A stretch of 25,311 nucleotides of DNA from Planctomycetaceae bacterium (GTDB taxonomy: Bacteria > Planctomycetota > Planctomycetia > Planctomycetales > Planctomycetaceae): the NCBI GenBank assembly GCA_019636285.1, contig JAHBXV010000067.1:1-25311 (forward strand), given 5' to 3'. Below are positions 5,522 through 25,246 of this stretch, in pieces. Positions within the stretch are counted from its first letter, which is position 1; each line of letters starts with the position of its first letter. The notes beneath the pieces were generated by a model. The model ran no database searches. It was not told the origin of the DNA and saw only the letters and a program-made list of their open reading frames with translations. The position numbers and the translations under genes were made by a program.

Positions 5522-6448
5522 TCATTCCGACGTTAATTGCCACGGCCCGGATGGACGCCAGGTCAAGGCGAACTCCTGGCCCGTAGCGAGTGCTGCTGCC
5601 AGTGGTCCCAAGAACTGCCCGAGGGCCTCGACAACGACGTGGAATTCGGCGGGGGCGATCTCCAGTCGCGACTTTCGCACGAATCCCTTCCACTGCGTCT
5701 GTTTGATCGGATCGTTCGCGAAGGCGGCGGTCAGCGCGATTGGGACCGCACTCATGGCGGTCTTGCGATTCTCAAATGTTCTCGTGACTGCCTCAGACAA
5801 CAAACGGCCGTCGAATTCAAACTGCCGCGACAAGAGCCATAGATCGAAGAAGTCCTTCAGACGGCTGTTGAGTTGCCCGAGCTTGACCATTGCCTCGAAC
5901 TTCTCGGCGACCACGGTCTCCCTGGGGTACGCGCGGAGTCGGGGCTGGGCATGGTCCAGGATCGTGGGGTAGTCGGCGAACGCGGCTTCGGGCACGACCG
6001 TGTCACCGAACCCGATGTCAATCTGCATGGGAACACGGGCATTTTCCAGGGACGCCTGAAAGGTGACTCGCACACCCGAGTAGTCCGCGTCTTCCTTGAT
6101 TTGTTGCCCTGCCACGGTCTCGACGGCAAACACCAATCCATCCGGCTCGACCGCGCGCTGACAGACATCGCGAAATACCGGGACGAGGGCATCCACGCTG
6201 TTGTTGAGCCGGCCCAGCAGGTCAATATCGCGTGTCGGACGGGAAGACAGCGCACCCCACAGGTTGAACAGGAGCGCTCCTTTGAGGATGAACCGCTCGG
6301 CATGTGGCGACTGCGACAGACGGTACAGGAATCTCTCCATCGCGAAGTATTGGAGCACTTCCTGAAAGGGACGCCCCGAGGCTACGGCCGAATTCATCAG
6401 CCGCTGGCGAACTGAGGCTGCGACGTTTTTGAGAGGCCGCTCGGTCAC
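5522..6448 (-). CDS. abiEii: AbiEii/AbiGii-family nucleotidyltransferase toxin (type IV toxin-antitoxin / abortive-infection)
   Basis: N-terminal signature ASVRQRLMNSAVASGRPFQEVLQYFAMERFLYRLSQS...ILKGALLF...RPTRDIDLL. The GTG start at 6448 overlaps the upstream stop as GTGA. An alternative ATG lies at 6397. The ORF-track extension to 7150 is an Arg/Pro-rich artefact. Confidence 0.8.
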   Translation of the reverse strand: MTERPLKNVAASVRQRLMNSAVASGRPFQEVLQYFAMERFLYRLSQSPHAERFILKGALLFNLWGALSSRPTRDIDLLGRLNNSVDALVPVFRDVCQRAVEPDGLVFAVETVAGQQIKEDADYSGVRVTFQASLENARVPMQIDIGFGDTVVPEAAFADYPTILDHAQPRLRAYPRETVVAEKFEAMVKLGQLNSRLKDFFDLWLLSRQFEFDGRLLSEAVTRTFENRKTAMSAVPIALTAAFANDPIKQTQWKGFVRKSRLEIAPAEFHVVVEALGQFLGPLAAALATGQEFALTWRPSGPWQLTSE

Positions 6449-7071
6449 AGCACGGCCTCCAGATAAGGCTGGATGACTCGCTTCACCCGACAGATTCCCG
6501 CGTAATGAAGGAGCGACTCGACGTTGACGCGGCCTTGGCGGCGGTATGCCTTGAGCGCCTCCAGCACGGTGTCGAGGCCGATCCGATTCCGGTGTTTGAA
6601 GCAGTCCGCCAGCGTTTTTTCGCGGCTGTAGATACGAACGGGGACTCCGTCGACCGTGTGTGTTTCGATCCCTTCCGAATAGGCGGGGCCGCTGAACCAG
6701 AAATGCCGCACCGGCGGATAGGACAGCCGAGGCGGTTCTGCCCCTCGGGGAATGGCGACGCAGATTTCGTGGGGGATTTGGGTGGTGAGTTCGTGCCAGG
6801 CGAGCGCCGAGATCAGGCAAAGCACCCCGTTGGGAATTCTGAGAGCGACGGTGACCAGGTCTGGATTGCCAAGCGACGGAGCGTCCGCGAGTCGGTACAG
6901 CCCCCGACTGAGCAGTTCGATCCGACCCGAATCGCGGAGAGCGTACAGAGTCCGGGGATGGATACCGGCCTCCAGAGCATCGCGCGTGCGGAGCATCCCC
7001 CCGAGGGCGCGGAAATGGTCCAGCGCCGCCGAGATCGGTCGGGGTTCTTCGGGAGGGTGTTCGACGCTCAT
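6445..7071 (-). CDS. abiEi: AbiEi-family antitoxin / transcriptional regulator (winged-HTH N-domain plus C-terminal domain)
   Basis: 208-aa ORF. LRTRDALEAGIHPRTLYALRDSGRIELLSRGLYRL is a winged HTH. Positioned immediately upstream of, and overlapping, the nucleotidyltransferase toxin. Confidence 0.85.
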   Translation of the reverse strand: MSVEHPPEEPRPISAALDHFRALGGMLRTRDALEAGIHPRTLYALRDSGRIELLSRGLYRLADAPSLGNPDLVTVALRIPNGVLCLISALAWHELTTQIPHEICVAIPRGAEPPRLSYPPVRHFWFSGPAYSEGIETHTVDGVPVRIYSREKTLADCFKHRNRIGLDTVLEALKAYRRQGRVNVESLLHYAGICRVKRVIQPYLEAVL

Positions 7072-7078
7072 GTGGATA

Positions 7079-7084
7079 AATATA
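7079..7084 (-). promoter_or_regulatory. Candidate -10 hexamer TATATT located 7 nt upstream of the abiEi ATG, implying a leaderless or near-leaderless transcript. A weak -35 CTGGCA lies 18 nt upstream, next to the direct repeat ACGCC-ACGCC.
   Basis: Read from the reverse complement of 7072-7130. No SD sequence lies between the hexamer and the ATG. Confidence 0.3.
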
Positions 7085-7569
7085 CCAGCACGGCGTGGCG
7101 TGTGCCAGTTTTTCTATCCAGGCGAGGCAGTTTTGGTAGAGGGCCAACACGGATGGGGGCTCGGCTTCCGAATGCCACGATGGACGGTGGCGGCAAGGCC
7201 ATGCGGCAAAACCGCTACAGCCGGACCGGAGATCGTGAGGGCCAACTCCCCGTAGGGCAGATTGGGATTCTCAGGGGCGGCCTCCGGGGTGCAAAAATGA
7301 GATCGACCCTCATTTACCCGCGAATTGCCGAGTCTATCACGATGAAGAACCTGTTTCAGCCCCTGTCGCTGCCGATCCTGGCGAAGCCGAGCGCCCAAGA
7401 GGTTTGTTGAAATCGCCCGTCGAGGCCTATCGCTCCGCCACGACTAACGATGTTCAGAAACGTCTCGTGGACATCCTTGATCCTCCGGAGTTACACCGGA
7501 TACAGCCCGGTGAGTGTGCGATAGGACCGAGTGAAGCTGCTTACAATCGCTCAGCAAACAACGCTTCAC

Positions 7570-10500
7570 TTACTGTTTGTGGATTGTCGTGGCAGCTTCT
7601 TCGACCATGACCGGGGATGGATTCAGTGTTGGATCGCTGGTTGGTTGCGATCCGGCCAACGGCGTCGGCATACCGGCTGATATCGGATTTGAAGGCGGTT
7701 GAATTCCGTCGGAGTGGGGCTGCTTATGTTCGTAAACCTTGCGGCCAAACTTGAAGAACAATGCAGGCGTGACGACTTGGTCGAGGATCGTCGACGTGAG
7801 CATTCCGCCGAAGACAACCAACGCCAGCGGATACAGAATCTCCTTGCCAGTCTGGCCTGCTCCGAACAGCAGTGGCAAGAGGCCGATGAAACTGGTCATC
7901 GCGGTCATCATCACGGGGGCGAGGCGTTCCAGGCTGCCACGCACGATCATCTGTTCGGAGAAGGCTTCACCTTCATGCTGCATCAGGTGAATGTAGTGTG
8001 TGATCATCATGATGCCGTTGCGACTCACGACGCCGATGAGCGTGATGAAGCCAACCCAGTGCGCGACGGACAGACTGGTGGCACTGACCCACACACGGGG
8101 CCAGTCCCACCAGGGGGCGGCTTGCAATGCGGACCACTCGGGGCGATTGACGATCAACAGCGTCAGCACCGAACCGAATGCAGCGAGAGGGATGTTGACT
8201 AGGACTTGTACAGCGGCCCTCCACGAATCGAGCGCTTTGCAGAGCAGCAGGAAGACCCCAAGGATGCTGAGCGTGCCGAGTATTGCCAAGCGGCGGTTGG
8301 CTTGCTGCTGGGCCTCAAACTGTCCGCTGAATTCGACGTAGTAGCTGCCGGGAAGTTGTTGGAGACTCTCTTCAACAGGGGCGACAGCCGCCTTGATATC
8401 CCTCACCACACTGGCGAGGTCACGCCCCTGCACGTTGCAGAAGACAACGATCCGACGTTGGACATTCTCGCGGTTGAGCGTGTTCGGGCCGGTGGTGTCC
8501 AGCACTTCCGCGACTTGTCCCAGCGCAACGCGGCGGCCGGAGGGAGTCTCCAGAATCGTCTCATTGATGGTTTCGGGATCGCTGCGCGAGGCTTCGTCGT
8601 ACCAGACGACGAGTCCAAAATAGCGGTCTTCGTCTAGCACTTGCGAGACGACTTGCCCCCGGTAGGCCGTCTCCAACAGATCCGCGACATCGCCCGGAGC
8701 GAGTCCGTAGCGGGCGGCCTCGTCACGCTTGACTCGCAGGCGAATCTGCGAAATCTCGATCTGCGGCTCGATCTGCAAATCGACGATGCCAGGGATCGTC
8801 TGCATTCGCTCCTGCATGTTGCTGGCGGCGGTCCGCAACTCGCGCAGGTCTTGCCCGAAAATCTTCACGGCGATCTGGGCGCGGATGCCCGACATCATGT
8901 GGTCCAGTCGGTGCGAGATCGGCTGACCGATATTGACCGCCGCGCCGGGGATGTTTGAGATGCGGTCGCGCACGTCGGCGATCACCTCGGCGCGCGGACG
9001 CCCCACGGAATCGAAACCCCACAAATGGACGATCGGGATCAGCCGCAGGGCCGCATAACCCCAGCCAGATTTCGGCGGATGGTGTTCGGCGAGTCGTACA
9101 TCGATCTCGGACGAATTGACTCCCTCGGCGTGTTCGTCCAGTTCCGCCCGACCTGTTCGGCGAGAGACCGACAACACTTCGGGAACATCGAGGATCAACC
9201 CCTCGGCGCGTGCGGCGATGCGCTGGCTTTCGTCGAGGCTCGTCCCCGGTTCCATACGCAGGCTGATTGTCAACGTCCCTTCATTGAATGGCGGCAGAAA
9301 CTCGCCGCCCATCCACAGGATGCTGGCACAGGAGAGCGTAACCAAAACGGCGACACCACTCAGAACCAGCGTTGCGTGACGTAACGTGAACCTCAATACC
9401 ATCTCATCCAGTCGCTTGAGCCAGCGAAGGACCAGCGGGTCGGCTCCTTCGTCCAGCAACTTGGCTTTCGACAGCAGTACCGAACCGAATGCGGGAGTGA
9501 AGGTCAGTGACACGACTAGCGAACAGAGCAGAGCGGTGATGTAGGCTACGCCCAGCGGAGCGAACATACGGCCTTCCAACCCGGCCATCGAAAACAACGG
9601 GAACATGACCAGAATGACAATCAGTGTGGCATAGACAATCGAATTGCGCACTTCGCACGAGGCGTCGTAGATCACGTCCAAAGGTGAACGCTGCTGGCTA
9701 ACTGGCAGGTGCCGATTTTCCTTCAAACGGCGATAGATGTTCTCGATGTCGACGATGGAATCGTCCACCAGATCGCCGATCGCCACCGCGATGCCTCCCA
9801 GCGTCATCGTGTTGATCGTGATGCCAAACCAGTGGAACACCAGAATCGTGAGCAGGATCGACAGTGGCATCGACGTGAGCGAACTGACGCTCGTGCGGAA
9901 ATTGCCCATCATCAGGAACAGGATGACGACCACCCACAAGGCCCCGTCACGCACCGCTTCGGTGACGTTTTCCACGGCGGCTGCGATGAAGTCGGCCTGC
10001 TTGAAGATGCGACGCTCGATGACGACATCGGGCGGCAATTCTTTCTGCAACGATTCCAGAACGTCGTCGATCATGCGGTCCAAAGCCAGCGTGTCGGCGT
10101 TGGGTTGTTTCTGCACCGTGATGATGACGGCCGGGCCACCGCTGACTTTTGTTGTCGCATGTACCTCTTCGGGCTGGTCGCCGCCGTCATGCCCATGGGC
10201 TGCCGGTACCGGAGTGTGCGGATGGGGCGACTGCTCGTCGTGACTCCCGTTCGAGTGTCCGTCCTCGCCGTGACTTTCGTCGTGTGCAGAGGAGTCTGGA
10301 TGTTCGTGCGGCAGTGATTCGCGAACGGCAGCGTTCACATCGGGTTCGAGCTTCACCCACGCGCTGCCATCTCCCCGTTTGACCGGCCCGCCGAAGCGGA
10401 CTTCGGCCACGTCCTTGATCCGGACCGGCATCGGGTCACGCCACAGAACGGGCGTGTTTTCAATCTCCTCCAGCGTGAGGCTCTGCCCATTGATGCGTAA

Positions 10501-11211
10501 CAGAGACTCTTTCGGTGAGCGGACTACGATGCCACCACCGGCGATCACGTTCGCCTTCTTCGCGGCCGTGACAAGTTGTTCCAGCGTCACGTTCTGAGCG
10601 GCCAACCGCGCTGGGGACGTGACGATCTGATACTGTTTGAAGATCCCGCCCATGACCGTGACCTGCGACACGCCACCCACTGCCAACAGCCGGTTCCGCA
10701 GCGTGAACTCTCCCAGCGTGCGTAGCTCCATCGCCTTGGCGTTTTGTTCTTCGGGGGTCTTCAACTCCGCGCTGGAGCGCAGGCCGAGCAACATGATCTC
10801 GCCCATGATCGACGAGATCGGTGCCATCACCGGATTCGTTCCTGCGGGCAGTCGCTCGCGGGCGAGTTGCAACTTCTCGGACACAATTTGCCGGTCGCGA
10901 AAGATGTCGGTGCCCCAATCGAACTCGACCCACACGATCGACAGTCCGATTCCCGATGCCGACCGGACTCGTTTCACGTCGGTTGCGCCGTTCAGCAGGA
11001 ACTCAAGAGGTCGGGTGACCAGCACCTCGACCTCTTCGGGGGCCAGACCAGTGGCTTCGGTCATGATTGTGACCGTCGGGCGGTTCAAATCCGGAAACAC
11101 ATCGACTGGCATCTCGCGCAGCTGGATGGCTCCCAATACCATGACGACGAGCGCCCCGATCAACACCAGGGCTCGGTTTTTCAGCGAGAAGGAAATGATT
11201 CCATTCAGCAT
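7570..11211 (-). CDS. Heavy-metal efflux RND transporter, CusA/CzcA (HME) family, with a His-rich periplasmic insertion
   Basis: Starts MLNGIISFSLKNRALVLIGALVVMVLG (ATG 11211). 12-TM RND architecture with the HME-type TM4 segment VAIGDLVDDSIVDIENI. The roughly 50-aa His/Asp/Glu-rich segment HEHPDSSAHDESHGEDGHSNGSHDEQSPHPHTPVPAAHGHDGG maps to 10162-10311. Confidence 0.9.
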   Translation of the reverse strand: MLNGIISFSLKNRALVLIGALVVMVLGAIQLREMPVDVFPDLNRPTVTIMTEATGLAPEEVEVLVTRPLEFLLNGATDVKRVRSASGIGLSIVWVEFDWGTDIFRDRQIVSEKLQLARERLPAGTNPVMAPISSIMGEIMLLGLRSSAELKTPEEQNAKAMELRTLGEFTLRNRLLAVGGVSQVTVMGGIFKQYQIVTSPARLAAQNVTLEQLVTAAKKANVIAGGGIVVRSPKESLLRINGQSLTLEEIENTPVLWRDPMPVRIKDVAEVRFGGPVKRGDGSAWVKLEPDVNAAVRESLPHEHPDSSAHDESHGEDGHSNGSHDEQSPHPHTPVPAAHGHDGGDQPEEVHATTKVSGGPAVIITVQKQPNADTLALDRMIDDVLESLQKELPPDVVIERRIFKQADFIAAAVENVTEAVRDGALWVVVILFLMMGNFRTSVSSLTSMPLSILLTILVFHWFGITINTMTLGGIAVAIGDLVDDSIVDIENIYRRLKENRHLPVSQQRSPLDVIYDASCEVRNSIVYATLIVILVMFPLFSMAGLEGRMFAPLGVAYITALLCSLVVSLTFTPAFGSVLLSKAKLLDEGADPLVLRWLKRLDEMVLRFTLRHATLVLSGVAVLVTLSCASILWMGGEFLPPFNEGTLTISLRMEPGTSLDESQRIAARAEGLILDVPEVLSVSRRTGRAELDEHAEGVNSSEIDVRLAEHHPPKSGWGYAALRLIPIVHLWGFDSVGRPRAEVIADVRDRISNIPGAAVNIGQPISHRLDHMMSGIRAQIAVKIFGQDLRELRTAASNMQERMQTIPGIVDLQIEPQIEISQIRLRVKRDEAARYGLAPGDVADLLETAYRGQVVSQVLDEDRYFGLVVWYDEASRSDPETINETILETPSGRRVALGQVAEVLDTTGPNTLNRENVQRRIVVFCNVQGRDLASVVRDIKAAVAPVEESLQQLPGSYYVEFSGQFEAQQQANRRLAILGTLSILGVFLLLCKALDSWRAAVQVLVNIPLAAFGSVLTLLIVNRPEWSALQAAPWWDWPRVWVSATSLSVAHWVGFITLIGVVSRNGIMMITHYIHLMQHEGEAFSEQMIVRGSLERLAPVMMTAMTSFIGLLPLLFGAGQTGKEILYPLALVVFGGMLTSTILDQVVTPALFFKFGRKVYEHKQPHSDGIQPPSNPISAGMPTPLAGSQPTSDPTLNPSPVMVEEAATTIHKQ

Positions 11212-11227
11212 GACGAACTTTCTGGCA

Positions 11228-13420
11228 TCAGCGCACGGCCGCATAGGCGGTTTGCAATTGTGGAACTCCGCCGGTGGCAATGTTCTCGCCGCGGGAGAGA
11301 CCGCTTTTCACCTCGAAAAACCGATCGTCGGCCCGTCCCAACTCGATACGACGCCGCTCGAATGTGCCGTCTGGCTTCCGGACGAAGACAAAGCTCCGCA
11401 GCCCATCGCGAATGACGGCCTCCAACGGGACGGCCAGGGTCGCGGGGGGCCGGTCGGTAGTCAGGGTGACTCGCGCCGCCATGTTGTGTTGCAGAGCCAC
11501 GGGTGGCAGCGACTGGAATTCGAGCCACGCGGCTTGTGTGCGACTGTCGGCCCCCACCACCGCTCCAATCCGCGTCACGGTTCCCTCGGCCGTGAGATCG
11601 GGATACGCCACCAATCGGATGCGGGCTTTCTGCCCCGGTTGGACGAGAACCGAGTCCCGTTCTCCAACAAACACCTGGACTCGCATTTGCGAGACGTCGT
11701 GAATCTCGAACAGCGGTTCGTCGGCTCGCACGACCTGACCGAACTTCCGATCCAGGTCTGCGACCAGTCCGTCAATCGGCGCTCGCACGGGCAATGTGTC
11801 GATCACGCGGCCCGTTTCGAGCACCTCCTCAATCTGCGTCGTTGTGACACCCAGCGTGAGCAGTTTCTGCCGCAAACCGGCAATCTGAGTGTCGAACGTC
11901 TTCACTTGCCCCTCCGTTTCGAGAATCGTCCGACGTGGGATCGCATCGCCCACGCCACGGCGACGGACCAGTGTGTCACGCCACATCACACCATCGAGAT
12001 GTGCCTGTAACAGCCCCAGTTGAATGTCCCGTAGTTCGAGGCTGGCAATTTCGGCGAGTACGTCTCCGGCTTTGACAGACTGTCCACGGTCGACGTGAAT
12101 GCCGACTAGCTTGCCCCCGAGTTGAGACGATGCCTGCGTGCGATGATCGGACGGGATGTCGAGTCCGCCATCAAAACTCTGGATGCGCTCGACGACATGC
12201 TCGGAGACGGGCTCCACCTTCAGTCCGATCGTCCGTGCCGTCTCTGGTCCGATGCGCAGCACACCGAGAAAGAACAGGCTCGACAGGGAGTGCCCGCCCC
12301 GCGTGACCACGCGATCCCCTGGCAGTAACTTGCCCGCCAGAATTTCCACCTGACCTGACCACTGTCGTCCGACAACAACTGCGACCTTCTGATATTGCGA
12401 GCCGCCCTTCAGTTCGGATTCTTCGATCAGGACATAGCGTTCTGCTCCGTCGCTTTGCACCGCTTCCGTCGGCACGGACATGACCGACTTGCGACTGATC
12501 CAGGTCACTTCTGCCTGCCCGTTCATGCCCGGTCGAAACACGGGCGAGTCCTTTGGGTTTTGGACCGCAGCCCAGGCGGTGCTTTGATGAGTGAGCGGGT
12601 CGAGCATCGCGCCGAGTTTGTCGATCCTCGTCTCAAACACCCGACCCGGCAGTCCGCTCAGCGATAACCGCACCGATTGGCCAATCGCCACCCGATGCCA
12701 GTCCCGTTCGAGGACACCAATTTTCACCCACACGGTCGAGAGATCGACGACCTCCATCAGATGTTCGGTCGGTTCGACGAATTTGCCGATCGCCAGGTCC
12801 GAATGCACAACCACGCCACTCACCAGACTTTGTACCGGCAGCCGCAAAGGTTCTTTCTGATCGGTCGTCAACAAGCCCTCGGCCACACCCAGTGCAGCCG
12901 CCTTGGATTGCAAGACACGCAATGCGTTCAAGTTCTGCTGGTGGGCCAGTTGCGCTTCAAGCAATCGCTGTCCCGCAACAGCCCCCACTTTGGCTGCCGG
13001 TTCCAAGCCTTCGAGGATTTTTCCAGAGAGGTCGATGTCGTTCTGAGCCTGTTGATAGTCCAACCGCAGCGTGTGCAGATCGAGACTGTCGAGTTCAGCC
13101 ACAATCTGTCCCGCCTCCACGACATCACCGGGACGCACCAGCAGAGTGACCACCCGTCCCGCCAGTCGCGATGTGACGACGGCGTACTTAGTCCACGGAG
13201 CGACAAGCGTCGCGTAGGCCCGCAACCGCTCGGTTCCCTCGCGCTGCTCAACCTCCACCGTCCGCACGTCGATCAGATCGCGAGCGGCCTTGCTCAGTAT
13301 GATCCGCCCTTGGGCGAGGTCCACCTGAACACCCTTGGTCGGCAACGGTTGATGCCCTTCGTGCCCAAACGCCGAGGCAGTCAACGCACCAACGAGCACC
13401 AAACAGACAACCCGCTTCAT
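11228..13420 (-). CDS. Tandem-fused double membrane-fusion protein (two complete CusB/CzcB-like periplasmic adaptor modules in one 731-aa polypeptide)
   Basis: Signal peptide MKRVVCLVLVGALTASAFG followed by HEGH. Both halves contain lipoyl/beta-hairpin (..PGDVVEAGQIVAELDS.. and ..AGDVLAEIASLE..), coiled-coil and C-terminal beta-barrel/MP segments. Continuous ORF without an internal stop. Confidence 0.85.
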   Translation of the reverse strand: MKRVVCLVLVGALTASAFGHEGHQPLPTKGVQVDLAQGRIILSKAARDLIDVRTVEVEQREGTERLRAYATLVAPWTKYAVVTSRLAGRVVTLLVRPGDVVEAGQIVAELDSLDLHTLRLDYQQAQNDIDLSGKILEGLEPAAKVGAVAGQRLLEAQLAHQQNLNALRVLQSKAAALGVAEGLLTTDQKEPLRLPVQSLVSGVVVHSDLAIGKFVEPTEHLMEVVDLSTVWVKIGVLERDWHRVAIGQSVRLSLSGLPGRVFETRIDKLGAMLDPLTHQSTAWAAVQNPKDSPVFRPGMNGQAEVTWISRKSVMSVPTEAVQSDGAERYVLIEESELKGGSQYQKVAVVVGRQWSGQVEILAGKLLPGDRVVTRGGHSLSSLFFLGVLRIGPETARTIGLKVEPVSEHVVERIQSFDGGLDIPSDHRTQASSQLGGKLVGIHVDRGQSVKAGDVLAEIASLELRDIQLGLLQAHLDGVMWRDTLVRRRGVGDAIPRRTILETEGQVKTFDTQIAGLRQKLLTLGVTTTQIEEVLETGRVIDTLPVRAPIDGLVADLDRKFGQVVRADEPLFEIHDVSQMRVQVFVGERDSVLVQPGQKARIRLVAYPDLTAEGTVTRIGAVVGADSRTQAAWLEFQSLPPVALQHNMAARVTLTTDRPPATLAVPLEAVIRDGLRSFVFVRKPDGTFERRRIELGRADDRFFEVKSGLSRGENIATGGVPQLQTAYAAVR

Positions 13421-13467
13421 AATCGAGCTTCCTGTCAGCGCTGCGTTCCTATTGTCATGTGGAAATG

Positions 13468-16092
13468 TCACAGCTTGACCCTCCTCAAGCGGAGTGCGTT
13501 GCCCACCACGGACAAGGAACTAAAGCTCATGGCCACACTGGCCCAGACTGGTGAGATCAAGAGGCCGAAAACCGGGTAGAGTAATCCGGCTGCCACAGGG
13601 ACGCTGGCCACGTTGTAGACAAACGCCAGGAACAAGTTCTGGCGGATGTTGGCCATCGTGGCGCGGCTCAACCGGAGCGCACGAACCAGCGACCGCAGGT
13701 CGCCGTGAACCAGGGTGATTCCGGCGCTCTCCATCGCCACATCCGTCCCCGAACCCATCGCGATACCGATGTGGGCCTGAGCGAGCGCAGGGGCGTCGTT
13801 GATTCCGTCTCCGGCCATCGCGACCACACGCCCCTCAGCTTGCAGACGCTTCACCACGTCGAGCTTTTGATTCGGCAGCACCTCGGCAATCACTTCGTCG
13901 ATGCCCAGCGATTTTGCCACCGCATCCGCTGTGCGGCGACTGTCGCCTGTCAACATGATGATTCTCAATCCCGCCTCTTGGAGCGCGCGGATCGCGTCTG
14001 CCGTGGTGGGCTTGATCCGATCCGCCACGCCAATCATCCCCGCGAGGCGTCCGTCGATGGCGACACACATCACGGTCTGCCCTTCGCCACGCAGTTCGTC
14101 CATGCGAGCGGCATGGTCCGCGAGGTCGATCGCGTGATCGGCCATCAGCCCTGCATTTCCCAAGGCGACGGACACTCCCTCGACGACACCGGTAACGCCC
14201 TTGCCGGTGACGGACTGAAACTCATCCGTTTGGGCCAGTGTCACACCACGTTCATTGGCCCCCTTAATGATGGCATCGGCCAGTGGATGCTCGCTGCCTC
14301 GTTCCAGAGACGCTGCCAGCCGCAGCACCTCGTCCGCCGTGAAGCCTGGAGTTGGTTCGACATTGATCAGACGCGGCTTGCCTTCGGTCAGTGTCCCGGT
14401 CTTGTCCACAACGAGCGTGTCGGCACGTTGCAGGACTTCCAGTGATTCTGCATTTTTGATGAGGACACCGTTCTCCGCACCGCGGCCCACTCCCACCATG
14501 ATCGACATCGGTGTCGCCAGCCCCAACGCACACGGACAGGCGATAATTAGAACCGCGACGGCATTCACAAGAGCATGTGCGAGCCGTGGCTCGGCTCCGA
14601 AAAGACTCCAGGCGATGAACGTCAGGGCGCTCACACCAATGACAACCGGGACGAAGTACCGCGACGCCTGATCGACGACGCGTTCAATGGGAGCACGGGT
14701 CCGCTGGGCGTCACCCACCATGCGGACGATCTGTGCGAGCAACGTGTCGGAGCCAACTTTTTCAGCTCGGATCAGCAAACTGCCTGTGCCGTTGATGGTG
14801 GCCGAGATCACCTTGTCATCCAACTGCTTCTCGACCGGCAACGGCTCGCCCGAGATCATAGACTCATCGACGGAACTGCGTCCCTCGACAACGATGCCGT
14901 CTGCGGTGACTTTCTCGCCGGGGCGGACGCGGAGCAGGTCACCATGCCGAATCAACTCCAGCGGTACATCCTCTTCCTTTCCGTCAGCAGTGACTCGTCG
15001 GGCCATCTTTGGAGCGAGGCCCAGCAACCGTTTGATCGCTCCACTCGTCTGGCTCCGAGCTTTCAACTCCAGGACCTGTCCGAGCAGGATCAGCACCGTG
15101 ACGACGACGGCCGTATCGAAATAGGGCATCACCGAACCGTTTGCATGGCGAAAGCCTTCAGGAAAGACGTCTGGAGCGACGGTGGCAATCAGGCTGTAGA
15201 GATAGGCTGAGCCAACACCCAGCGCGATCAGGGTGAACATGTTCGGGCTGAGGTTCCGAATCGACAGCCAGGCCCGCTCGAAGAAGGGCCAGCCGCACCA
15301 GAAAACGATCGGAGTTGCGAGGAGCAGTTGTCCCCAGTTCAGCCCAGCCGCCCAGTGGTGAAGCGGATTGTTGGGGAGCATATCGGCCATCGCCACCACG
15401 AACACCGGCAGCCCCAGGATCAGACCCACCCAGAATCGTCGCGTCATATCTGCTTGTTCGTGGCTTGGTCCGTCTTGTAACTCGACAGTGCGCGGCTCCA
15501 GAGCCATCCCGCATTTCGAGCAGGAGCCGGGATGATCGCTCACCACTTCCGGGTGCATCGGACAGACATACTCCACTTTCAAGGTCGCAGGCTGATCGAT
15601 CGGTTCCAGCCCCATGCCACATTTCGGACAGACGCCGGGGCCAACCTGTCGCACCTCGGGGTGCATCGGACAGGTGTACTCGGCACCGTCCTTCCCAGCC
15701 ACAACCAGGGCGACGTCCTTCAAGTATTGCGAGGGATCGGCCACAAACTTCTGCTGGCAATGCGTACTGCAAAAATAGTACGCCCGCCCGGCATGATTCG
15801 CGGTTGCTACCGCTTTGCCGGGATCAACCGTCATGCCACACACCGGATCATGTGACGCCATCACATCGTGCGACTGGTGTGCGCAGCACGAATGTTCTGC
15901 CTGTGGATTCAAGAATCGCTCGGGTGCCACGCTGAACTGTTGCTGACACGACATCGAGCAAAAAAAGTAAGCGGTCCCATCATGGAGATGCGAACCAGCC
16001 GCGTGAGCCGGGTCGACGGTCATGCCGCACACGGGGTCAATCGCGGGCATTGAGCCTGCATCAAGGATGGGAAGAGCGGAGCCGATGTTCAT
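13468..16092 (-). CDS. copA: Copper(I)-translocating P1B-type ATPase with four N-terminal metal-binding modules (2x TRASH/YHS-like, 2x CPMHPE..CxxCGM HMBD-like)
   Basis: CPC motif ([13 protein letters not shown]), DKTGTLT phosphorylation site and GDGINDAP hinge. The N-terminus has DPVCGMTVD...YFFCS..C twice and CPMHPEV...CPKCGM / CPMHPEV...CSKCGM. Confidence 0.9.
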
Positions 16093-16128
16093 GACACTGC
16101 CTTAAAGAGAGTTCTTCTTCAGCCCGAA

Positions 16129-16974
16129 TCAATCCACTTGCAGGACCGCCGGGATCGTGAAGACCTGCCCTTGGTGCTGAAACTGTCCCCAAGCCTTGTA
16201 GATACCGGGCCGGGCGATGTGAGCCGCGAATCTCACCTGTCCATCGGTTGCCGACTCTGTTTCCGCATGAGCGTGGATGTACTCGCCCGTCCCCGCACCG
16301 ATCACCACCAGATGACCCATCGCGCCGAGATACGGCTCCAGATCCGTCACCGCTTGACCGTCGGGATGGCGGTGTGAGAACGTCACCTGCCACTCACCTT
16401 CACCCTGCTGCGCGAAGACTTCCGTTTTCACATTGCCTGCGGTGACGACCACCGGCACGTTCGCCTTCAGTTCGGGCGCGGCAGGCGGGTCTCCAGTGAC
16501 ACGTAGCTCATACCGAATGGTCTGTTGCTCCTCTCCTTTGGCTTGGCAATCCACAAAGAGCCAGTATGTTCCGGCCGTGGGAAAGGCGATCTCAATCGTA
16601 GCCTGACCGTCATTGGCCACGGTCGGATGCAGATGTTGAAACTCGTCGAGGGCATCTCGCACCACAATGAGGTGCATGACTCGTTCGTGTAGCAGGTCGA
16701 ACTCGCGCAGCGTCTTGCCATCTCGCTCCAGATGAAATTGGAGCTTCGTGGGCACGCCGGGCTTCAGATTGTCACCACCGGCGTCTATCACGAATGTTGC
16801 AGGCGCGGCTATGCCACTCATCCCCGAGATTTCCATATGCCCGCCATGATTGCCAGACGGAGTTGTTGGTCCGCCGTGTGAGGAATGGTCTGTGGATGGC
16901 GTAACCGGCGTAGTCGTTTGTTGTCCACATCCGAGCAAGCTCAGAACGATGAGTGCCACACAGGAACGAAACAT
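16129..16974 (-). CDS. Periplasmic lipoprotein with a His/Gly-rich N-terminal region (putative metal-binding), function unknown
   Basis: ATG 16974 is preceded by AGGAG. Lipobox LSLLGC. HSSHGGPTTPSGNHGGHMEISGMSG follows the lipidated Cys. 36 nt upstream of copA. Confidence 0.75.
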   Translation of the reverse strand: MFRSCVALIVLSLLGCGQQTTTPVTPSTDHSSHGGPTTPSGNHGGHMEISGMSGIAAPATFVIDAGGDNLKPGVPTKLQFHLERDGKTLREFDLLHERVMHLIVVRDALDEFQHLHPTVANDGQATIEIAFPTAGTYWLFVDCQAKGEEQQTIRYELRVTGDPPAAPELKANVPVVVTAGNVKTEVFAQQGEGEWQVTFSHRHPDGQAVTDLEPYLGAMGHLVVIGAGTGEYIHAHAETESATDGQVRFAAHIARPGIYKAWGQFQHQGQVFTIPAVLQVD

Positions 16975-17016
16975 GAAATGACTCCTGGCCTGAAGATAAG
17001 GACCAAACATTTGGCA

Positions 17017-18159
17017 TTAGCGGGACTTCGGTTTGCCGACATCAATGCGGGCGGCCAACACCACGGGTTGCCCATTGAGTTTGGACTCCCAGCAGGCGAT
17101 GACCGGTCCCTCACCATTAGTAGTGGAACTGACCATCGGATCGCGCGCGGCTCCGGCCAGTTTTTGTGGCTGATTCGAGGCGGGACTCTGTACGAGCAAA
17201 TCGCCTTCGCGACTGGTGGTCCAGACGATGACTGGTCCATTGGACGAGGAAGCGATCCACGGTTGCTCGCCGCGTCCCAGCAACTGTTCACGCCCGCCTG
17301 TGCTGACGGCGGAATAGACCTCGCCATTCCTGCGCCAAACGGTAACGAGCGAGCCATTGGGACCTGCGGCCAGCATCCCACCGTCCATCGGGCAGGCGTT
17401 GAGCTTCCAGCTTCCTTGACCGGCTTTTTTCGCAGTTGCAAACGTCTTACCGTCGTCTTTGGACGTGGCCACATACATGTCCCGGTTTCCCGCCAGCGAA
17501 TTGCGAAACATGACATGCACGGCATCGTCGCTCACCAGGATCGATGGATGGCAGCATTCGCAGACGTTGCCATCCGGAGAACGATAGACCCGCACATTGG
17601 GCTGCCAAGTCTCGCCACCATCGGTGGATTTCGACGCATAGACCTCGGATCGCTTCTCGCGCAGATCGAGCCAGGTCGCCCACACTGAGCCATCGGGACC
17701 GGATGCCATGCCGTGCAGTCCCTCACGCGCGGAGTCGGCCGCGTCGTTGACTCGCACCGGTCCCTGCCATGTCGCACCGCTATCGGTAGAGCGCCAGGCG
17801 AGCACATCTCCATCGCGGCCTTTTCCCTGCATTCCGCCCACGGCTGTCACCACCACGGCATTTCCCGCAACACTGATGCGCGGCCCGCGTCGCATCCCCA
17901 GCGACATGTTCGAGATACGAAATGCCTCTTGAGGTTTCGTGAACGTGGCCCCGGCATCCGTCGATTGGCAGTGAAATACCGCGTCACCCGATCCGTAAAT
18001 GAGATGAACAGTACCATCCGTGGCCACCGCAGCCTGCGGCTGTTTGGGGGACTGTCCAGCACCACTGGTTGCAATCACGACCGGCTCGGCGGCCAACACG
18101 GGCATGGTCAGAAGGACAACAACCCAGCAGGTCAGACTTCGATAGAGACGTGTCTTCAT
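17017..18159 (-). CDS. Secreted BNR/Asp-box repeat beta-propeller protein (sialidase-like fold) containing a CECCH cysteine cluster
   Basis: Signal peptide MKTRLYRSLTCWVVVLLTMPVLAAEP. Asp-box motifs STDAGATF, STDSGATW and STDGGETW. The motif DGNVCECCHPS is present. Confidence 0.8.
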   Translation of the reverse strand: MKTRLYRSLTCWVVVLLTMPVLAAEPVVIATSGAGQSPKQPQAAVATDGTVHLIYGSGDAVFHCQSTDAGATFTKPQEAFRISNMSLGMRRGPRISVAGNAVVVTAVGGMQGKGRDGDVLAWRSTDSGATWQGPVRVNDAADSAREGLHGMASGPDGSVWATWLDLREKRSEVYASKSTDGGETWQPNVRVYRSPDGNVCECCHPSILVSDDAVHVMFRNSLAGNRDMYVATSKDDGKTFATAKKAGQGSWKLNACPMDGGMLAAGPNGSLVTVWRRNGEVYSAVSTGGREQLLGRGEQPWIASSSNGPVIVWTTSREGDLLVQSPASNQPQKLAGAARDPMVSSTTNGEGPVIACWESKLNGQPVVLAARIDVGKPKSR

Positions 18160-18280
18160 AGTGATCGCCTTGGAGGAAATGAGTGCTTGCCAATGTGCGT
18201 TTGCAGTAGAGCCAGCCATTTCAGAGAACCGATCCGATACCTGCTCCCACGCTTCTGACTTCGACGAAATCGCACCGCGG

Positions 18281-18673
18281 CTACTGATCCGCCGTGTTGC
18301 CGGCCTTCAATGCCGCGACCTTCGCCAGCGTCTCGTCGGGATTCTTGAGGGCCTTCGCCTTGCAGCCGGAACAGCAGACGAAGACGGGTTCGCCTTTGAT
18401 CTCGAACTTGATGGGTGTTCCCATCGAACCCAGACGGGACTGATTCATCACGGCACAGAACTGCTGGGCCTTCGCCAAGGCCTGGTCCTGCGGGCTCAGC
18501 TTGGCCAGCAAGACCGAGACTTTGGAATCGTCAGCTTCAGCAGAATGATCGTCGTGACTGGCCTGCGCTGACGAAGCCGGTGTCGTGGGTGGAGTCTGTG
18601 TCTGACAGCCCACAGCCAGCGCAACAGCGACAAGTGGTAAGAATGTGATGGCCAACTTCCGCGAATGAAACAT
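18281..18673 (-). CDS. Small lipoprotein with a C-terminal TRASH/YHS-like metal-binding domain
   Basis: Lipobox LAVGC. C-terminal FCAVMNQ...GEPVFVCCSGCKAKALKNPDE matches the TRASH pattern C..M....G..YFCS..C...NP. Confidence 0.75.
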   Translation of the reverse strand: MFHSRKLAITFLPLVAVALAVGCQTQTPPTTPASSAQASHDDHSAEADDSKVSVLLAKLSPQDQALAKAQQFCAVMNQSRLGSMGTPIKFEIKGEPVFVCCSGCKAKALKNPDETLAKVAALKAGNTADQ

Positions 18674-18726
18674 GATTTGGTCTCCGATGAATGGTCTTTG
18701 TGTCGGTACCGCAAGAAGGACGGAAA

Positions 18727-19644
18727 TTACTTGATGTAGGTATCCGGGGTCTTGACTTCCTCGGGATGCTCTTTGGCGAGCTTCACAAACTCATCCACGC
18801 AGGGTGGGCAGCAGAACTGGTACGGCAGTCCACCGATGATCCAGGTGAAGTTGGGATTGGCCCTGGTCATCGAGATGGGACATATCTTGTCACCGGGATT
18901 TGGCTTTGCGTTGTGCGACGACATCAAGCCCTTGAACTTCTGCGAGGCGGTCACTTTGCCGTTGGCCGCGATGTCAGCTTCCGTGTACTTGCCACCCGGT
19001 GTCAGATACAGCGCCTGCTCCTCAGCGGCTGGCAAACTGGCGGGCATTTCTTCCTGATGGGTCTCCGTCTGCGTCGTAAATCCCACGCGGAATCGCTCGC
19101 CATTGATTCGGATGTTCGGAATCGTGATTTCCAGAGGCTTGCCCCTCAGGTCCTCCGGCAACTCCCCTAAGAACTGAGAGGTCTGGCCTGGCCTGTCCCC
19201 CTCCTGCGGCGTCGCGATTAAATCCACCGGTACAGCATCGGGCTGTCCGACAACTTTGACATACGCCTTGATCGGCTGCTCGTCGACTTCTTGTATCCGC
19301 GACTCATCCTTGCCGAGCGTGAGCAGTCGGAACGCTCCCCCCTTCTCAATCACCGCCTCAGCGTGATAGCTGTCCGTTCCGATGGGGACGATGATTCCAC
19401 CATGCGAGCCCGGCTTGTGTGCGTGATCACTCTCGGCTGGCATGGCGACCCCACCGGGGTTGCTGGTGACCGTGGCAGGGTTTGGATTTGCTGGCGCGGT
19501 TGCCGCTGCCCCCTGCGAAGACGCGGTTGCTTGAGACGTGGCGTCAGTCCGTCGAGCCTGGTTCTGGCCGCAGCCGATCGCGAACAGAAACGAAATGCTC
19601 AGCAGCGCAAAGCCGGTGAGAGAAAGCGAGTTGCGTGTAGACAT
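18727..19644 (-). CDS. Lipoprotein with an N-terminal H-x-H..GG..YHAE motif region and a C-terminal TRASH-like domain (CPISM...YQFCCPPCVDEF)
   Basis: ATG 19644 is preceded by GGAGGAA. Lipobox FAIGC. HAHKPGSHGGIIVPIGTDSYHAEAV is a paralogous motif to the 21270-21776 protein. Confidence 0.75.
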   Translation of the reverse strand: MSTRNSLSLTGFALLSISFLFAIGCGQNQARRTDATSQATASSQGAAATAPANPNPATVTSNPGGVAMPAESDHAHKPGSHGGIIVPIGTDSYHAEAVIEKGGAFRLLTLGKDESRIQEVDEQPIKAYVKVVGQPDAVPVDLIATPQEGDRPGQTSQFLGELPEDLRGKPLEITIPNIRINGERFRVGFTTQTETHQEEMPASLPAAEEQALYLTPGGKYTEADIAANGKVTASQKFKGLMSSHNAKPNPGDKICPISMTRANPNFTWIIGGLPYQFCCPPCVDEFVKLAKEHPEEVKTPDTYIK

Positions 19645-19817
19645 GGTTGAGTTCCTCCGTTTCGCTCGCGCAGCATCAAGCAGCGGTCGAAACAGCCAAA
19701 TTGCATTGGGAAAGCAAGCGACAGCACGGCGAACTGCCGAACAATCACTACTGCAAAGCCAGAACTGTTTGGGCTACCACTCTGCTCAGCAGAGGAGCCT
19801 GACAGGGCGAGAAGAGA

Positions 19818-20261
19818 TCAGCAGCGGAGTGAGTTCACCGCGCGCAAAATGCCAACGCCATCCAAGCGAGGAAAGGCAGTGGGCCAGCAGAAGGTTGCCT
19901 TCAATGGAGCAACTTCTACCAAGGACGGCCATTCATGATGTGGCGCAACGATAAGCTGGCGTGCCCATCCGTCGTGCGAAATGGATGGAACGACCACGTC
20001 ACTGGCCAGGTTGGCCGAATTGATTTTCCCGTTCTTACAGGGGCATTCGTGTCCAGACCCATCCGAGGAATTGGGGGATTGGTCCGTCGAATCGTTTGAA
20101 GTATGACAACAGCACGAATCGGGCGCTGTCTCGCAAGCCTCGACTGGTCCCAAGGCCGCAAGCGTGCAACAACAGAACGACTGCCCGAAGAGCGTCGTTA
20201 CCATCAACAGCAGCGAAAGAGCCTTGCGTCCCACAATTGTTGTCCCTTGGGGCGAGTTCAA
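19818..20261 (-). CDS. Candidate secreted Cys/His-rich small protein (CCC..CETAPDSCCCH..HECPC); coding status uncertain
   Basis: 147-aa ORF starting at TTG. Signal-peptide-like N-terminus with an AXA site (VEA-CE). GC3 is lower than in neighbouring genes. Adjacent to an IS remnant. Confidence 0.3.
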   Translation of the reverse strand: MNSPQGTTIVGRKALSLLLMVTTLFGQSFCCCTLAALGPVEACETAPDSCCCHTSNDSTDQSPNSSDGSGHECPCKNGKINSANLASDVVVPSISHDGWARQLIVAPHHEWPSLVEVAPLKATFCWPTAFPRLDGVGILRAVNSLRC

Positions 20262-20337
20262 ACTCGCCTGATCGAACTTCTTTCATTCTATCGATGACCA
20301 GTCAAGGCGGGAAGAGCAGATTCATTCCAGACTGCTG

Positions 20338-21269: not shown

Positions 21270-21776
21270 CTATTCCTTGAACGTCCCCTGCGAGGGCTTG
21301 CCGTCAATTTCGCCGAGAACCGTGCCTTCGAAGTCAGCGACATTGCCAATTCCGGGGTCCGTCCCCACGAACTTGGCCGTCTTGCCCTCCTGCGCATCCA
21401 CCGGAGTGAGCTTGACTGTCATTGGCGCGACCACGGTGCCGTCCGCCGTCTTGGTTTCCTTAGTCGTCAGCGTGAGTTCCGTAGCGGAAACGGGAAGCGG
21501 CTTGGCATCTGTCGCATCTCCGGTCACGAACAGGACCGTGCATTCCTTCTTGGGGTGATCCACGGTGAATTCTGCGTGGTACTTGCCCATGTCAAACACC
21601 ACGCCGCCATTCGGTCCACTGCCGTGGGAGTGTCCTGCCTCTTCAGGCTTCGCGGCGTTGCTCGTGGTAGCCGGTGGTGCTGTCGCTGGGGCAGGCGCGT
21701 TAGGCTGCCCGCCACAACCCGCCATCGTCAGAGCAGCGGTCACCAGGCACAGATGGGCGATCTTCTTGAACATCAT
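21270..21776 (-). CDS. Periplasmic lipoprotein with the H-x-H..GG..YHAE motif (putative metal-binding), paralogous to the N-domain of the 18727-19644 protein
   Basis: SD AAGGAGA lies 6 nt before ATG 21776. The ORF-track GTG start at 21791 falls inside the SD. Lipobox TMAGC. Motif GHSHGSGPNGGVVFDMGKYHAEF. Confidence 0.7.
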   Translation of the reverse strand: MMFKKIAHLCLVTAALTMAGCGGQPNAPAPATAPPATTSNAAKPEEAGHSHGSGPNGGVVFDMGKYHAEFTVDHPKKECTVLFVTGDATDAKPLPVSATELTLTTKETKTADGTVVAPMTVKLTPVDAQEGKTAKFVGTDPGIGNVADFEGTVLGEIDGKPSQGTFKE

Positions 21777-21808
21777 CTCATTCTCCTTCACTCGGAAACA
21801 CAGATCAT

Positions 21809-24800: not shown

Positions 24801-25246
24801 TGCGGTCCCTGACGACGATGAATGCCGACATGGAGGATCTGTCCCATGATCGACGCGGTCGGCGTCATCAGTGGACGGACACCGGGCGGCATGGGCAGCG
24901 CGGCCAACCGTTCCATGACAACCTGTCGCGCGGCCCGCACATCCGTCTTCCAACTGAACTCGACATAGATGACGTTCATTCCCTGACTGGACTGGCTCCG
25001 GACCGCCTCGACGCCGGAAGCCCCCAGAATCGCCGTCTCGATGGGAAAGGTGACCAGCGTCTCGACCTCTTCCGAGGAGAGACCGGGGCATTCGGTCAGG
25101 ATGACGACCCGTGGACGGTCCAGATCGGGAAAGACATCGATCGGCAGCGTCGTCGAAAGGTATCCCCCATAAGCGAGCACGACCGCGCACGCGGCCAGAA
25201 TCAGCGCGCGATTCGTCAACGAGAATCGAATCAGAGCATTCAGCAT
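21809..25246 (-). CDS. Second heavy-metal efflux RND transporter (CusA/CzcA family), with an inserted segment of roughly 70-100 aa in the first periplasmic loop
   Basis: Starts MLNALIRFSLTNRALILAA. HME-type TM4 segment AIGELVDDAIVDVENI. The inserted segment HRRQGPQGG...TTADWLI maps to about 24529-24832 and is absent from the paralog at 7570-11211. Confidence 0.9.
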   Translation of the reverse strand: MLNALIRFSLTNRALILAACAVVLAYGGYLSTTLPIDVFPDLDRPRVVILTECPGLSSEEVETLVTFPIETAILGASGVEAVRSQSSQGMNVIYVEFSWKTDVRAARQVVMERLAALPMPPGVRPLMTPTASIMGQILHVGIHRRQGPQGGELASIATTNLLVERTGPDSSPALTVWRPRNRNDLATWERVEVSRLQWVESGRTAAFVWNERTYEGRFLTPLEERMDVRTTADWLIRPRLLKLPGIAEVIVMGGDKKQYQVLVDPQKLQEYNVSLQQVETAIQANNLNTSGGFLEEDQTERPVRIIGRLGPNRDKVIEDLRKVPVDVNEDRPVLLRHVAQIEEGPAPKRGDASIDGHAGVVITIVKQPHADTRKLTDEVKTALRETEAALPADMVINTDLFQLKSFIDRGIYYVEEALLIGAVLVVIVLFLFLLNLRTTFITLTAIPLSLVITTLVFRLVGLLTGTELSINVMTLGGIAVAIGELVDDAIVDVENIFRRLAENSAAPHPRPDIVVVYEASMEIRSAIVFGTAVVVLAFVPLFALSGVEGRLFAPLGIAYIVSILASLVVSLTVTPVLSYYLLPQSQAAHGHHDGLLLRGLKWAAGFLIRFSMRVPGLLLLLTWLCVGFSVWQLSRLGADFLPKFDEGSVQINVALPGGSSLKASNQVSALIDARLMTMQKSPQQLDAPILHFARRTGRAELDEHAQPVNVGEYILTMNPDARYRRDEFLKTLLADLRSNVPGVEIEAEQPLSHLISHMLSGVNAQLAIKLYGDDLDKLRQLAGQVRDVIAAVPGVTPPIVDPQERVDELHVVLRPDDLAFFGLSREYVADFVQTALKGEAVSQVLEGQRRFDLVIKLKEPYRSDAYNLGELRLDLPEGRGQIRLREVADFPEAASGPNLVNRENVRRRQTIRCNVTGRDLESAVVEIEQRVRGQVAMPTGYFVEFGGQFEAQRSATRLITVLAGVSLAGVFIVLMMLYPSVRITLQILNAIPTAFIGGVLALVLTNQTLTVASLVGFVSLGGIAVRNGILLVTHYFHLMKEEGEGFSKEMVLRGSLERLAPVLMTALTAGIALIPLVVGGKKPGLEILYPVATVILGGLVTSTFCEFLIHPGLFWKFSGKDADRLAHSQVSDEELLRTSRPVSGM

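Follow-up and report, generated by a model that had tools for sequence, protein, structure and literature searches.

Adaptors of resistance-nodulation-division (RND) efflux pumps, known as periplasmic adaptor proteins (PAP) or membrane-fusion proteins (MFP), normally stand at two per RND protomer in a 3:6:3 stoichiometry. The functional adaptor unit is a dimer, six adaptors are arranged round the RND trimer, and the two that serve each protomer are not equivalent. AcrA protomers I and II contact AcrB and TolC differently, and the same is true of the CusB pairs on CusA (PMC5404916). The subject of this report is a gene in a 25,311-nucleotide stretch of DNA from a Planctomycetaceae bacterium (assembly GCA_019636285.1, contig JAHBXV010000067.1), which is called the window throughout. 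It codes for two complete periplasmic adaptors in one natural chain, which probably act as a covalent heterodimer for the heavy-metal RND transporter whose gene lies immediately downstream.

In the TriABC-OpmH pump of Pseudomonas aeruginosa, two diverged adaptors that are 36% identical to each other are used per RND protomer. TriA and TriB are both needed, and they bind TriC at different places (PMC4338810, PMC13450314). The two modules of the planctomycetal adaptor are 27% identical. A single-chain TriA-TriB protein of 695 residues was engineered for the TriABC structure (PDB 6VEJ, chain P), and it has nearly the same length and order as the adaptor described here. Module 2 matches this chain (6vej_P) directly in a PDB sequence search. 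TriA and TriB differ from the planctomycetal protein in that they come naturally from separate genes, serve a drug pump of the hydrophobe/amphiphile efflux (HAE-1) type and have no metal tail, whereas here the fusion is natural and ancient and the partner is a heavy-metal RND.

Fused adaptors have been described before. DSY0927 of Desulfitobacterium hafniense is a natural fused dimeric adaptor (Zgurskaya et al. 2009, as cited in PMC4338810 and PMC4446572) and is taken in these two papers as evidence for the dimeric unit. Compared by description, it resembles the planctomycetal adaptor in carrying two different MFP modules in one polypeptide, and differs from it in serving an ATP-binding cassette (ABC)-type transporter in a Gram-positive host and in having an N-terminal half that is described as free of a coiled-coil (PMC4338810). 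The adaptor studied here, in contrast, has hairpins in both halves (80-107 aa), a heavy-metal-efflux (HME) RND partner, a host in a diderm phylum and a large phylum-wide family. Because the coiled-coil, partner and host of DSY0927 differ in this account, the planctomycetal fusion is an independent event. Engineered tandem AcrA-AcrA fusions (Xu et al. 2011) are likewise reported in these sources to complement an adaptor deletion (PMC4446572, PMC4338810). They show that a fused dimer can build a working pump, but they are artificial homodimers of a drug pump and not a natural, diverged heterodimer. The concept of a fused adaptor was thus anticipated. What is new is the size and age of the family, its fixed asymmetry and its N-terminal histidine motif.

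Taken one at a time, the modules find their best sequence and fold matches in ZneB (3LNN) and CusB (3NE5), which have the same domain order and work with CusA/ZneA-type partners. Each CusA protomer is bound by two CusB molecules that are not equivalent, and CusB carries a metal-binding N-terminal tail. Both differ from the adaptor here in being single-module proteins.

Two adaptor modules in one polypeptide

A sequence-only reading of the window, made before the present analysis, took the gene for a 731-aa open reading frame (ORF) with two complete adaptor modules. Its position is as that reading gave it; its length refers to 731 codons including the stop, and the protein has 730 residues (Table 1). 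The two modules are borne out. The Pfam families HlyD_D23, HlyD_3 and Biotin_lipoyl_2 have two matches apiece in the adaptor, and module 1 can be aligned to module 2 over 311 residues (E 2e-19). The whole protein is matched by two NCBIfam models, RND_mfp (TIGR01730) and CzcB/NccB (TIGR00999).

Each half was also examined separately, as the sequence-only reading had advised. Both pass TIGR01730 when scanned alone, with 127.1 bits for module 1 and 125.3 bits for module 2 against a cut-off of 94.9 (239.9 bits for the whole protein), and module 1 by itself covers positions 1-314 of the 322-position profile. HlyD_D23 is found in either half with E ~3e-30. The top solved homologue of both is ZneB (E 2e-17 for module 1, 4e-21 for module 2). 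These E-values are far beyond chance. Scores against more specialized models lie below their cut-offs: TIGR00999 gives 196.3 bits for the whole protein and 97.4 and 104 bits for the modules (cut-off 319.3), and the CusB model NF007303 gives 77.3 bits (cut-off 390). Judged by these profiles, the adaptor belongs to the RND adaptor superfamily, because each module scores above the curated threshold, and is neither a CusB nor a curated CzcB.

The AlphaFold2 (AF2) model of the adaptor has a predicted local distance difference test (pLDDT) score of 88.9 and a predicted template modelling (pTM) score of 0.77. Each module in this model consists of two long helices together with beta-rich lipoyl, barrel and membrane-proximal segments. 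The chain of module 1 runs through membrane-proximal strands, barrel, lipoyl domain, hairpin, lipoyl domain, barrel and membrane-proximal domain. The predicted secondary structure thus places the four-part architecture of adaptors (membrane-proximal, beta-barrel, lipoyl and alpha-hairpin) in both modules. Fold matches of the adaptor include ZneB, CusB, MacA, AcrA and MexA. Hairpin regions are kept in all 88 members of a diverse set of homologues, at 80-105 aa in module 1 and 87-107 aa in module 2.

Two start codons can be considered for this gene. The ATG at 13420 follows an AGGAAG Shine-Dalgarno sequence located 7 nt upstream, and the alternative GTG at 13471 shares bases with the stop codon of the upstream ATPase gene in a GTGA overlap. 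The mature protein is identical whichever of them is used.

The same fusion is widespread. More than 220 full-length homologues were found, with 28-96% identity to the adaptor. Among database homologues, the best 120 have lengths of 697-762 aa, a query coverage of 92-100% and identities down to 47%. When 1.84 billion representatives of 50%-identity clusters were searched exhaustively with a profile, 221 matches at E <= 1e-30 were obtained, and 106 of the best 150 representatives are full-length, single-stretch matches that reach down to 28% identity. Matches shorter than 640 aa among these 150 look like fragments rather than free-standing modules: they are module 2 pieces without signal peptide, have non-ATG starts or scrambled ends, or derive from truncated or frameshifted gene calls. 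The source names retrieved for homologues all denote an ordinary adaptor or MFP subunit and leave the fusion unrecorded, and no paper on planctomycetal fused adaptors was found in the open-access literature.

The sequence-only reading had also proposed a search for the fusion in related genomes. When one genome per species was scanned (GTDB representatives), 269 fused loci were recovered, the best 80 of them full-length. Genera with the fused adaptor include Schlesneria, Planctomicrobium, Gemmata, Fimbriiglobus, Isosphaera and Pirellula, and it is also present in metagenome-assembled genomes (MAGs) labelled Ca. Kuenenia. Among the complete genomes with the fusion are those of Planctomicrobium sp. 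SH527 and, in two copies, Planctomycetaceae bacterium SH248. Named sources are almost all Planctomycetota (Planctomycetaceae, Gemmataceae, Isosphaera, Pirellulaceae and the Ca. Kuenenia-labelled MAGs). Four contigs with a fused adaptor (L050, L060, L063, L065) bear the label of uncultured MAGs of Alcaligenaceae or Chitinophaga. Mis-binning of planctomycete DNA is the probable reason, and horizontal transfer may be another.

The fusion is also old and goes back to a single event. The 88 diverse members were cut at the junction and their modules were compared for nearest neighbours. The nearest neighbour was of the same type for 88 of 88 modules 1 and for 87 of 88 modules 2, with a median score of 143 bits within a module type versus 87 bits across types. 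This sorting by module type places the fusion, on sequence grounds, before the diversification of the family, with a module order that was never shuffled. Mean constraint on the two modules is near equal (0.46 versus 0.44). The junction has a conservation score of 0.54 in the diverse set, above the mean of either module, and its residues G375, F383 and L388 are invariant among close relatives (alignment A1). A conserved junction of this kind is unlike a degenerate intergenic remnant. Internal duplication and fusion of two neighbouring paralogues would both suit the scores as the origin of the gene, since the distance between the modules (75 bits) is about that of each module from proteobacterial ZneB (67-79 bits).

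The N-terminal histidine motif and the partner transporter

The mature adaptor is predicted to begin with an 11-residue tail. As the sequence-only reading had noticed, HEGH (aa 20-23) directly follows the hydrophobic signal sequence. Of 226 full-length homologues, 215 have the longer motif HEGHxPLPTKG next to the signal peptide, and the remaining 11 are N-terminally truncated or carry variants such as HDDH, HGDH or HENH. No variation is seen at H20, E21, G22, H23, P25, L26, P27 and G30 in alignments A1 and A2, and the tail is the most conserved segment of the protein (score 0.74 versus 0.38-0.55 elsewhere). Residues 19-24 are disordered in the AF2 model.

Histidine occupies position +1 in all 215 motif-bearing sequences. 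Position -1 is alanine or glycine in 213 of them, and position -3 is mostly alanine, leucine or valine. Cleavage by signal peptidase I after G19 is predicted from the alignment by the -3/-1 rule. The residue pattern implies a cut that leaves histidine as residue 1, and His20 therefore probably becomes the mature N-terminus. Reading HEGH as an HExxH metalloprotease motif is incorrect, since its spacing is H-E-x-H and not H-E-x-x-H.

A conserved histidine placed directly after a signal peptide is an established chelator of transition metals. The ligands are its amino terminus and its imidazole, and CopC, YcnI and the 'anglerases' have a histidine brace of this kind (PMC12537917, PMC10952591, PMC8424229). 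Histidine-brace proteins, among them also lytic polysaccharide monooxygenases (LPMO), resemble the adaptor in that an invariant histidine comes first after the signal peptide, where it chelates Cu(II) or Ni(II) (PMC12537917, PMC10952591, PMC8424229). They differ in that their His1 sits in a folded domain or is appended to a permease, whereas here it would cap a disordered, 11-residue tail of an efflux adaptor, with metal binding that is putative.

By analogy with these systems, the tail probably binds metal and takes the role of the CusB N-terminus. The sequence-only reading had raised this likeness to CusB. The extreme constraint on the tail is consistent with metal binding, and the resemblance to CusB would be one of function only. 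Cu(I)/Ag(I) is handled by methionines in the tail of CusB and at the CusA site; HEGHQPLPTKG has no methionine, and its chemistry would be based on histidine. His4 is a plausible candidate for a further nitrogen ligand.

The gene for the partner transporter begins 16 nt beyond the adaptor stop codon. Its product is most closely related, among solved structures, to CusA (1e-119) and ZneA (3e-113). Conservation of the neighbourhood was assessed in the 80 best of the 269 loci, by ORF calling of our own and BLAST clustering; 71 of these loci have a complete adaptor ORF. In 47 of these 71, the next gene downstream encodes an RND. Where both proteins were compared locus by locus, the RND partner is the more conserved, with 73-83% identity against 47-62% for the adaptor.

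At the positions of the CusA methionine triad M573/M623/M672, the 47 partners have serine or asparagine, serine, and histidine, respectively. Residues E690, D692, E693, H694, E696, H767, D770 and H771 are invariant in 47 of 47. Because the methionine triad is replaced and a His/carboxylate cluster is invariant, the alignment identifies a site that is not of the Cus type for Cu(I)/Ag(I). The partner RNDs may form a distinct HME clade.

The His tail and the His/carboxylate site together suggest, by analogy, that the metal is a divalent ion. Cu(II) is the leading candidate because of linkage to CopA and multicopper oxidase genes, and Zn(II), Ni(II) or Co would also be possible. The two features point to a metal hand-off unlike that of the Cus system.

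Two further features of the transporter were observed. Its transmembrane helix 4 (TM4) motif, AIGDLVDDSIVDIEN, contains an Asp-Asp pair like that of AcrB. Residues ~282-354 (window 10150-10370) form a 73-residue periplasmic insertion with 11 histidines (…HEHPDSSAHDESHGEDGHSNGSHDEQSPHPH…). This insertion is lineage-specific: the median insert in 48 aligned RNDs is 9.5 residues and has no histidines.

Proposed pump assembly and alternative explanations

These observations can be combined into a model for the pump. The adaptor would be exported and its signal peptide cleaved. Three single-chain adaptors would then encircle the RND trimer and supply six adaptor positions. Modules 1 and 2 of one chain would occupy the two non-equivalent positions on a single RND protomer, corresponding to CusB molecules 1 and 2, AcrA protomers I and II, or TriA and TriB, with a division of labour between them. 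A funnel of six hairpins would dock a separately encoded outer-membrane factor (OMF). One flexible His1-Glu-Gly-His4 tail per chain would chelate a divalent metal, for which Cu(II) is the likeliest candidate and Zn(II) or Ni(II) are possible, and either pass it to the pump, where the RND His/carboxylate cluster takes the place of the CusA triad, or gate the pump.

The C-terminus of module 1 and the N-terminus of module 2 are both part of membrane-proximal domains, and we infer from the analogous systems that the ~16-residue junction holds the modules side by side. The sequence-only reading had supposed that a covalent dimer enforces a 2:1 stoichiometry. A ratio of two adaptor domains per protomer is already the normal one, so that no new ratio would arise; what the fusion can do is to hard-wire the heterodimer. 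The related suggestion that the protein could replace a second adaptor, by having it built in, fits the paired and the engineered fused adaptors as these are described (PMC4338810, PMC4446572) as well as the match to 6vej_P.

Several points weigh against parts of this model. The hairpin lengths of modules 1 and 2 do not co-vary among the 88 diverse members (r = 0.07) and so provide no independent sign that both modules act in one barrel. A canonical RLS motif at the hairpin tip is not evident by eye in the adaptor sequence. Side-by-side packing and a 3:3 assembly of adaptor chains and RND protomers rest on analogy and on a pTM of 0.77. The window contains no OEP (outer-membrane factor) gene, and none is linked in 71 of 80 loci. 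Linkage to CopA-like ATPase genes (21 of 80 loci) and to multicopper oxidase genes (5 of 80) is partial. Metal binding by HEGH is a putative function, and His and carboxylate ligands may suit Zn, Ni and Co as well as Cu(II).

A different division of roles has to be considered, in which only module 2 is structural, module 1 with HEGH serves as a tethered metallochaperone or regulatory domain, and six chains surround the RND. SilB, which carries a CusF-like domain, offers a model for such an arrangement. The candidate metal tail belongs to module 1, module 2 outscores module 1 against CusB and ZneB, and H206 and H220 are conserved in module 1 of close relatives and not at the equivalent positions of module 2. 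We nevertheless consider this explanation improbable. In module 1, none of the four adaptor domains is missing and the hairpin has its full length. This module also passes TIGR01730 on its own over nearly the entire profile and is as conserved as module 2. The short and conserved junction is also read as keeping the two membrane-proximal domains adjacent.

A second alternative starts from the outer-membrane partner. The sequence-only reading had suggested that the fusion replaces the outer-membrane channel. In an OMF-less, two-component pump of this kind, an adaptor trimer would cap the RND and release or sequester periplasmic metal, or would itself reach an unusual envelope. The shortage of OEP genes just described would be explained, and planctomycetal envelopes are atypical. 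Yet OEP genes recur near fused-adaptor clusters: one is located within 10 kb in 9 of the 80 loci, and when only loci with 8 kb or more of sequence on both flanks are counted, the figure is 6 of 27. In the complete genome of Planctomicrobium sp. SH527 (locus L031), the fused adaptor, RND and OEP genes follow each other in this canonical order, with an 80-nt gap before OEP. Nothing resembling a beta-barrel channel or a TolC-like tunnel was found in the adaptor by Pfam scan, in the AF2 model or among the fold matches. Adaptor hairpins contact the OMF tip to tip (PMC5404916), and both hairpins are kept in 88 of 88 members. Moreover, many RND operons without a linked OMF borrow one; the mexJK operon, for example, encodes no outer-membrane protein (PMC13450314). 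The retained hairpins, the OEP gene after RND in SH527 and the nine linked loci argue against the channel-replacement claim, and an OMF-less pump is unlikely.

Finally, the artefact that the sequence-only reading had named as its refuter, in which a missed stop or frameshift joined two adjacent MFP genes, can be dismissed, because the same ~730-aa single ORF occurs in more than 220 independent sequences (NCBI, JGI, ENA, Logan), complete genomes included, and in the species-representative loci, because the junction residues are conserved as protein, and because an unfused pair was not found among the matches examined.

A natural heterodimeric fusion would bear on how RND adaptors are thought to work. 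So far, the trimer-of-dimers model has drawn most of its support from engineered fusions, the paired TriAB system and one anecdotal natural fusion. A large and ancient family in which order, hairpins and junction are fixed provides independent natural support for two non-equivalent roles per RND protomer. A single-chain system would also be convenient for separating the position that opens the channel from the one that stimulates the transporter.

A more elaborate version of the fused-heterodimer model can be put forward as a tentative possibility. The system might be a Planctomycetota-specific pump that fixes asymmetry in one chain and uses its His1-x-x-His4 'fishing line' as a brace-like Cu(II) site to load the RND His/carboxylate site. 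The periplasmic copper captured in this way would first be exported by the adjacent CopA-type ATPase and oxidized by the multicopper oxidase linked to the cluster. The whole would then amount to a Cu(II)-selective RND exporter whose hand-off chemistry is unlike the methionine relay of CusCFBA, and the nearby His-rich and TRASH-like lipoproteins would be its periplasmic feeders.

Gene neighbourhood

The genes surrounding the adaptor are listed with its own features in Table 1.

Table 1. Parts of the fused adaptor and other genes in the window
Feature	Position	Strand	Description
Fused double adaptor gene	11228..13420	-	730 aa + stop from ATG at 13420
Adaptor gene from alternative start	11228..13471	-	GTG at 13471; 747 aa
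Signal peptide, aa 1-19	13364..13420	-	MKRVVCLVLVGALTASAFG; read from sequence
N-terminal tail, aa 20-30	13331..13363	-	HEGHQPLPTKG; putative metal-binding mature N-terminus (His1-x-x-His4)
Adaptor module 1, aa 31-372	12305..13330	-	AF2, family models, ZneB match
Module 1 alpha-helical hairpin region, aa 113-186	12863..13084	-	AF2 helices 113-144, 150-176, 181-185
Junction, aa 373-388	12257..12304	-	TRGGHSLSSLFFLGVL; frame unbroken
Adaptor module 2, aa 389-730	11231..12256	-	CzcB/ZneB-like; domain order as module 1
Module 2 alpha-helical hairpin region, aa 461-537	11810..12040	-	AF2 helices 461-489, 496-523, 527-536
Heavy-metal RND transporter	7570..11211	-	1213 aa from ATG at 11211; ACR_tran 1.6e-230; TIGR00914 CusA/CzcA 714.6 bits
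Cu(I)-type P1B ATPase	13468..16092	-	Two YHS/TRASH + two HMBD (CxxC…C) domains; stop abuts adaptor gene
His-rich lipoprotein w293	16129..17010	-	No Pfam or NCBIfam family
Secreted BNR_2 protein	17017..18219	-	Beta-propeller-like (sialidase-like); conserved in cluster, 25/80 loci
130-aa lipoprotein	18281..18673	-	C-terminal domain as in w305
Lipoprotein w305	18727..19644	-	305 aa; His-rich stretch; C-terminal Cys-x(n)-Cys-Cys-x2-Cys domain, TRASH-like
147-aa secreted protein	19818..20261	-	Cysteine clusters
AbiEii-domain ORF	5522..7150	-	542 aa; directly downstream of RND gene
173-aa lipoprotein	21270..21791	-	After second RND gene
Second HME-type RND transporter	21809..25246	-	1145 aa

The ATPase gene sits between the gene for the His-rich lipoprotein w293 and the adaptor gene. 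The motifs CPC, YN and MxxSS are seen in its sequence, which mark Cu(I) pumps in the Arguello classification, and NCBIfam concurs on the Cu type. Its N-terminus is unusually rich in domains, with the two YHS/TRASH domains placed ahead of the two HMBD domains. A classical ferredoxin-like HMA domain was not detected in domain scans of this protein.

Uncharacterized periplasmic lipoproteins near the adaptor may feed the pump. Genes of the w293 family occur in 29 of the 80 loci and, among the 71 whose adaptor ORF is complete, stand immediately upstream of it in 19. The protein has 821 homologues, and its residues H96, H101, H114, H116, H221, H234, H236 and H252 are invariant. Two Ig-like beta-sandwich domains follow an N-terminus that is His-rich and disordered (…HSSHGG…NHGGHMEISGMSG). 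Its AF2 model is confident, and Foldseek matches it only to generic tandem Ig-like folds. We regard w293 as a candidate periplasmic metal-binding partner.

The w305 family is the commonest accessory neighbour. It is found in 51 of the 80 loci, often in two or three copies. The TRASH match of w305 is sub-threshold (E 0.0011), and PDB sequence searches gave no match for w305 or w293. The 130-aa lipoprotein has the same Cys-x(n)-Cys-Cys-x2-Cys C-terminal domain as w305. Both lipoproteins show weak, sub-threshold matches to TRASH and ATPase-cat_bd and are His-rich after the lipobox.

Other neighbours vary in how often they recur. Extracytoplasmic function (ECF) sigma and anti-sigma genes are present in 13 and 9 of the 80 loci, respectively. 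The 147-aa secreted protein contains cysteine clusters (CCCTL…CETAPDSCCCH…GHECPC), has no Pfam match and has homologues in 14 related loci.

A block of ~13 kb (window 7370-20325), which spans from the RND gene to just before an insertion sequence (IS) fragment, is 94-95% identical in DNA sequence to two other planctomycete MAG contigs (L008, L009). The similarity ends by an AbiEii toxin gene on one side and by an rve_3 integrase fragment on the other. Because it stops at both ends beside these genes, the metal cluster may move as a cassette. AbiEii proteins belong to type IV toxin-antitoxin or abortive infection systems. The AbiEii nucleotidyltransferase toxin domain occupies residues 273-500 of the 542-aa ORF, which may be a fused or mis-called AbiEi-AbiEii pair.

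A second HME-type RND gene, with the TM4 motif AIGELVDDAIVDVEN, is located near the end of the window. The gene upstream of it leaves the window, such that only the last 19 residues of its product, ending …HVHADGSLHKNEDEGK, are inside, and an exact-sequence look-up for this partner gave no match. The second RND gene is followed by that of a 173-aa lipoprotein (…HSHGSGPNGGVVFDMGKYHAE…).

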